This document shows positions 62,805 to 63,190 of a stretch of DNA of 64,000 nt, in pieces; position 1 is the first letter of the stretch; every line of letters begins with the position of its first letter. A program made the position numbers and the translations under genes. Source of the DNA: Escherichia coli (lineage in GTDB: Bacteria > Pseudomonadota > Gammaproteobacteria > Enterobacterales > Enterobacteriaceae). Where the stretch lies: the NCBI RefSeq assembly GCF_050320075.1, contig NZ_CP190018.1; one strand, given 5' to 3'. The notes under the pieces were generated by a model. It had not been told where the DNA came from, did no database searches, and was given only the letters and a program-made list of their open reading frames with translations.

Positions 62805-62835
62805 AGAAACAAAAAAACACCCGTTAGGGTGTTCA
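62805..62835 (-). terminator. rho-independent terminator of the tRNA-fMet operon (minus strand)
   Basis: Minus strand reads AACACCCTAACGGGTGTT followed by a T-run, directly after the last tRNA. Confidence 0.6.
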
Positions 62836-62840
62836 ATAAT

Positions 62841-62917
62841 TGGTTGCGGGGGCCGGATTTGAACCGACGACCTTCGGGTTATGAGCCCGACGAGCTACCA
62901 GGCTGCTCCACCCCGCG
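62841..62917 (-). tRNA. tRNA-fMet (initiator), copy 1
   Basis: Reverse complement matches initiator tRNA (CGCGGGGTGGAGCAGCCTGGTAGCTCGTCGGGCTCATAACCCGAAGGTCGTCGGTTCAAATCCGGCCCCCGCAACCA), 77 nt with CCA. Confidence 0.95.
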
Positions 62918-62949
62918 TCACCGTACTGCTTTATTTCATCAAATTTGAT

Positions 62950-63026
62950 TGGTTGCGGGGGCCGGATTTGAACCGACGACCTTCGGGTTATGAGCCCGAC
63001 GAGCTACCAGGCTGCTCCACCCCGCG
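62950..63026 (-). tRNA. tRNA-fMet (initiator), copy 2
   Basis: Identical 77 nt sequence; 32 nt spacer. Confidence 0.95.
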
Positions 63027-63059
63027 TCACCGTACTGCTTTACTTCATCAAATTTTAAT

Positions 63060-63136
63060 TGGTTGCGGGGGCCGGATTTGAACCGACGACCTTCGGGTTA
63101 TGAGCCCGACGAGCTACCAGGCTGCTCCACCCCGCG
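63060..63136 (-). tRNA. tRNA-fMet (initiator), copy 3
   Basis: Identical 77 nt sequence; 33 nt spacer. Confidence 0.95.
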
Positions 63137-63149
63137 TCCGTGGATGCGC

Positions 63150-63190
63150 ACTATACTCCGCTCGCGTTTTCATGCAACCTTTTTTTTACC
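63150..63190 (-). promoter_or_regulatory. stable-RNA-type promoter of the tRNA-fMet operon
   Basis: Minus strand: A-rich UP-like tract, TTGCAT (-35), 16 nt spacer, TATAGT (-10), GC-rich discriminator GCGC, ~7 nt before the first tRNA. Confidence 0.5.

Follow-up and report, generated by a model that had tools for sequence, protein, structure and literature searches.

What are the three regularly spaced repeats that lie at positions 62805-63190 of the analysed stretch of E. coli DNA (64 kb in total, hereafter the window), and which molecule do they encode? We are virtually certain that they form the metZ-metW-metV operon of E. coli, which is the chief supplier of initiator tRNA (tRNAfMet1), and nothing substantive speaks against this reading. 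ARAGORN, run on the whole 64-kb window, found exactly three tRNA genes, all of them on the minus strand and with the anticodon CAT (cat at position 35 of the tRNA), and the tRNA model of Rfam (RF00005) scored each of the three copies at 61.4 bits, compared with a gathering score of 29. In the order of transcription the genes are metZ (63060-63136), which includes an encoded CCA, metW (62950-63026) and metV (62841-62917). The three 77-nt copies are mutually identical and are separated by a metZ-metW internal transcribed spacer of 33 nt, which is AU-rich (63027-63059), and a metW-metV internal transcribed spacer of 32 nt (62918-62949). A repeat search returned a unit of 109 or 110 nt (tRNA plus spacer) in three copies with 98% identity, and three exact 77-mers cannot have arisen by chance. 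An earlier note, made from the sequence alone, had described three exact tandem copies of 77 nt on the minus strand with spacers of 32 to 33 nt; both ARAGORN and the sequence agree with this description, and the bounds given in that note (62805-63190) enclose exactly the unit of promoter, array and terminator. ORFs of 30 aa or longer run across the array on either strand and were taken as mechanical artefacts of the tRNA array.

Regular repeats of 77 nt set apart by spacers of 32 to 33 nt, a length typical of CRISPR spacers, could also be read as a CRISPR-like or other non-tRNA repeat array. A CRISPR array has repeats of about 23 to 47 nt, unique spacers and usually cas genes nearby. Here, however, the repeats are tRNAs of 77 nt, which fold and score as such in ARAGORN and Rfam, and the two spacers are nearly the same in sequence, since the entire tRNA-plus-spacer unit is repeated almost unchanged; in the flanks of the array shown, no cas genes are annotated. 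With tRNAs as repeats and near-copies as spacers, a CRISPR-like array is ruled out, as the earlier note had already held, and the probability of any such non-tRNA array is vanishingly small, the lowest of all readings weighed here.

The identity of the tRNA is a separate matter. A tRNA scan, which had been named as a check, would not suffice here, as the label returned by ARAGORN, 'tRNA-Met (cat)', is too coarse to prove an initiator. This label is common to the initiator, the elongator Met and the precursor of Ile2(CAU), and identity was therefore tested directly against the annotated genes of K-12. Each of the window copies matches K-12 metZ, metW and metV at 77 of 77 positions, and these K-12 genes are annotated as 'tRNA-initiator Met(CAU)'. 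From K-12 metY, which has A at position 46 where the copies have G, they are one base apart, and since G46 is the sole difference they represent the tRNAfMet1 isoacceptor, which is described in PMC3017606. The ARAGORN label would suit elongator tRNA-Met genes, whose products read internal AUG codons, just as well, but the copies agree with K-12 metT/metU at 47 of 80 aligned positions (about 60%) and are complete matches to genes annotated as initiators. At 1:72 they carry C1xA72, which is no Watson-Crick pair, whereas both metT and ileX of K-12 have G1-C72; the C1xA72 mismatch is the main determinant of formylation and of exclusion from EF-Tu. The purine-11:pyrimidine-24 pair in their D stem is A11:U24, an initiator-specific pair, and their anticodon stem contains three consecutive G:C pairs (G29:C41, G30:C40 and G31:C39). 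In addition, the copies show G2:C71, C3:G70, A73 and the encoded CCA (standard numbering). The comparison with metT/metU thus rules out an elongator identity, which we consider exceedingly improbable. In tRNA-Ile2, TilS modifies the CAU anticodon to lysidine-AU, after which it reads AUA, and the genomic anticodon CAT, common to ileX and ileY, would be compatible with such genes; however, the copies and K-12 ileX are identical at 48 of 79 aligned positions (about 60%), and acceptor and anticodon stems differ. By this comparison tRNA-Ile2(CAU) is ruled out as well, and we give it a still smaller probability than the elongator.

The initiator identity proposed in the earlier note is therefore borne out by the full match to K-12 metZ, metW and metV together with the structural hallmarks. 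The product of these K-12 genes, tRNAfMet1, has been studied biochemically, and the part that the three G:C pairs play in the anticodon stem has been described (PMC3017606). From the identity at all 77 positions we infer that the array tRNAs are methionylated and formylated and function in the P site in the same manner: MetRS would charge the mature tRNA via its CAU anticodon, the C1xA72 mismatch and determinants near it would bring about formylation, and the three G:C pairs would lead to selection of the tRNA for the P site.

How might the array be expressed? On the same strand, a sigma-70 promoter of the stable-RNA type precedes metZ, composed of an A-tract, the -35 hexamer TTGCAT (63172-63177), 16 nt between the hexamers, the -10 hexamer or Pribnow box TATAGT (63150-63155) and a GC-rich discriminator. 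The A8 tract (63180-63187), which two bases separate from the -35 hexamer, resembles the proximal subsite of an UP element, whose consensus is AAAAAARNR, which suggests an UP-like role. Between the -10 hexamer and the 5' end of the first tRNA there are 13 nt (63137-63149), which open with the GC-rich GCGCATCC and would comprise the discriminator, the transcription start and a short 5' leader. Judging from the distance to the -10 hexamer, transcription probably starts at about 63143-63141, about 5-7 nt upstream of metZ. Both the GC-rich discriminator and the spacer of 16 nt, which is sub-optimal, are features of stable-RNA promoters under stringent control.

A generic sigma-70 consensus scan of positions 62600-63500 called no promoter, because TTGCAT matches TTGACA at 3 of 6 positions and the scan has a threshold of at least 4/6 matches in the -35 hexamer. 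We rejected the missing call as evidence against the promoter, as it reflects the threshold of the tool and the promoter has been established genetically in K-12. With the scan silent, support for the promoter comes from its identity to the experimentally studied promoter of K-12 metZWV, which extends from the A-tract to the tRNA and includes both the A8 tract and the -35 hexamer. In that study, promoter activity and the level of tRNAfMet1 fell drastically when a T inside the Pribnow box was changed to C, and likewise when a G immediately before the box was changed to A (PMC3017606). The primers used there bear the same gagtatagtgcgcatccacgga sequence as the -10 region of the window, and the knockout primers reproduce the promoter and terminator sequences found here (PMC3017606). 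In addition, where PMC3017606 cites Nagase et al. (1988), mapping of the transcription start, down-regulation by ppGpp and growth-rate dependence are reported for K-12 metZWV, and both kinds of control would carry over to the promoter of the same sequence in the window. A TTGCAT/TATAGT promoter with a GC-rich discriminator and an A-rich upstream tract had been noticed from the bare sequence, and its identity to the K-12 promoter upholds this; the same is true of the hairpin terminator noticed at the other end of the array, where we found an 8-pair hairpin and a T-run (62834-62805).

This intrinsic terminator (62805-62834, minus strand) consists of the hairpin GAACACCC-UAAC-GGGUGUUU, in which four of the eight pairs are G-C, followed by a U-run, and is identical in K-12. 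The hairpin folds at -11.1 kcal/mol (z = -3.7 compared with shuffles). From the distance between promoter and terminator (62805-63143), a primary transcript of about 335-340 nt is predicted. This single transcript would contain the three identical tRNAs, the two AU-rich spacers and a 3' trailer reaching to the terminator. The full metZWV precursor has been described as 'about 500 nt' (PMC10710024), which exceeds the predicted length. RNase P would cut the 5' ends and thereby remove the short 5' leader, and endonucleolytic cuts in the spacers, followed by trimming by 3' exonucleases, would release tRNAs with their encoded CCA, with spacer cleavage and 3' trimming assumed to proceed as in general E. 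coli tRNA processing.

The spacers, which are unstructured (the one between metZ and metW folds at 0 kcal/mol), have a reported secondary role in that they bind Hfq as well as two small RNAs, RybB and MicF. The sequence AAAGCAGU occurs in both spacers and is perfectly complementary to RybB nt 4-11; the perfect complementarity covers 8-9 nt within RybB nt 4-12. The predicted duplexes between spacers and RybB range from -13.6 to -16.4 kcal/mol and are stronger than 97-99% of shuffles. This complementarity fits the published observation that ITS fragments of both spacers pull down RybB and MicF (PMC4583644). In K-12, the polycistronic metZWV precursor exists and binds Hfq weakly via the metW-metV spacer (PMC10710024). 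Compared with the 33-nt allele of this spacer in K-12, the 32-nt allele of the window is predicted to form a RybB duplex weaker by about 2.8 kcal/mol.

The array is embedded in the gene order argA-amiC-[array]-mltA-tcdA and thus lies between mltA and amiC as in K-12, with which the window is colinear from 14210 to 63523. A region of 900 bp around the array, annotated with amiC, three tRNA-Met genes and mltA, is present in 5425 of 5426 complete E. coli genomes. In about 36% of the 5425 genomes, homology breaks just 3' of metV. One such genome that we examined, that of strain 10035004-3, carries a type VI secretion island after metV (with tssB, tssC, tssK, tssL, hcp, tssH, vgrG, PAAR and other genes); on the 3' side of metV in the window (62805-62841) this island site is empty and amiC follows directly.

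The number of 110-bp units is not constant. Among evenly spaced samples of the E. coli genome ranking it varied from one to four, with one copy in GF3-3, JA0266, GF54 and AVS0285, two copies in ECONIH5, FY10, UMNF18 and APEC O18, and four copies in PRO_A-1370-6W-A_ESBL. About 10 of 110 sampled rows did not have three copies, a rough indication of the frequency of such variants as the tail of the ranking was over-represented. Assembly error is a possible source of these variants. An assembly of ST648 (NZ_CP008697.1) appears to be without the metZWV array: homology to the window stops 2 nt before the first tRNA (window position 63138), the promoter and mltA are kept, unrelated genes (for phosphoglycerate dehydrogenase, KpsF/GutQ and MalY/PatB) stand in place of the array, and the record contains no tRNAfMet match other than metY. 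It is conceivable, although in our view rather doubtful, that the tandem 110-bp unit serves as a natural dosage dial whose copy variation is adaptive for the rate and fidelity of initiation and not a product of neutral slippage or assembly error, and that the 32-nt allele of the metW-metV spacer might also slightly alter the binding of RybB and Hfq by the precursor.

Several other segments of the window were noted as well. A Hin-like serine invertase gene (1789-2346, minus strand) adjoins an ORF-poor stretch (region 1789-5032): about 2.7 kb after this gene contain no ORF of at least 80 aa and no annotated CDS, at a GC content of 32-38%. Iteron-like direct repeats occur in this ORF-free stretch at 3258-3371 (spacing of about 60 nt) and 3552-3597 (a 23-nt unit present twice), and an Rfam search of positions 2200-5200 gave no match at an E-value of 0.1 or below. 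Next to the invertase gene and this stretch, a rare AT-rich island extends from about 4700 to 13455, which is covered to at least 80% in only 34 genomes and has the appearance of a small integrative element, phage-like or a satellite. It encodes many small hypothetical proteins and a replication-initiator-like protein of 221 aa, a major capsid protein of the Phage_cap_E type (8939-9967), a protein of 613 aa with a match to a tape-measure PHROG (10331-12172) and, on the minus strand, a tyrosine integrase (12280-13455), and it is followed by a copy of IS1 (13497-14194). The adjacent remnant of the ETT2 type III secretion island (14210-19318; ygeH, ygeG, yqeK and others) is 93.5% identical to K-12, compared with about 98% for the rest of the window. 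Between araE and ygeA, an insertion of the IS200 family of about 700 bp (29085-29791; tnpA ORF within 29178-29687) is absent from K-12, and no more than 136 of 5426 genomes carry it at this position; an Rfam match to the Hfq-binding RNA STnc490 (29096-29219, 143.9 bits) corresponds to the 5' end of this element. On the plus strand, Rfam recognized the tandem small RNAs OmrB (34136-34217) and OmrA (34333-34420), whose aas-galR location is that known from K-12.

Why would a gene for initiator tRNA, the tRNA with which every protein begins, be present in three copies? The level of initiator tRNA tracks gene copy number, and scarce initiator tRNA lets non-initiator tRNAs initiate (PMC3017606); deletion of metZWV leads to impaired growth (PMC11480407). 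The three copies thus serve dosage, because the tRNAfMet level follows the number of genes, and the resulting abundance protects the fidelity of initiation. Most of the initiator tRNA of the cell comes from metZWV, and its copy number sets both initiator abundance and the fidelity of start-site selection; for the window, the value of the analysis lies in the correct annotation of this locus. The operon is also a positive control which demonstrates that tRNA arrays, stable-RNA promoters and terminators are recognizable from raw sequence.

Promoters of the rrn P1 type, such as rrnB P1, have a 16-nt spacer and a GC-rich discriminator starting with GCGC, and their -35 hexamer is preceded by an A-rich tract. 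The metZWV promoter resembles rrnB P1 in all of these features. Both metZWV and rrn P1 are ppGpp-sensitive, for metZWV according to the report of Nagase et al. (1988) as cited in PMC3017606, but unlike rrn P1 the metZWV promoter is a single one and drives no rRNA. Outside the operon, metY (tRNAfMet2) is likewise an initiator tRNA and identical to the array tRNAs at 76 of 77 positions. In contrast to the array, metY has A46 instead of G46, is present in a single copy and is the first gene of metY-rimP-nusA-infB, where it is co-transcribed with protein genes; its regulation by cAMP-CRP and ArgR also differs from that of metZWV (PMC3017606). The nearest counterpart is metZ-metW-metV of K-12 itself (b2814-b2816). 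An alignment of 590 bp of the locus with K-12 gave a mean column identity of 98%; the tRNAs, the promoter from the A-tract to the 5' end of the tRNA, the first spacer and the terminator are identical, and the neighbouring genes, mltA and amiC, are the same. The two sequences differ in three ways: the metW-metV spacer of the window (32 nt compared with 33 nt in K-12) has one A deleted and one G-to-A change, a single position about 27 nt before the -35 hexamer shows a G/A difference, and a few changes lie past the terminator. The differences touch no known functional element, though the change in the spacer weakens the predicted pairing with RybB. The metZWV operon of the window is thus an already known system, with no departure from the textbook operon.
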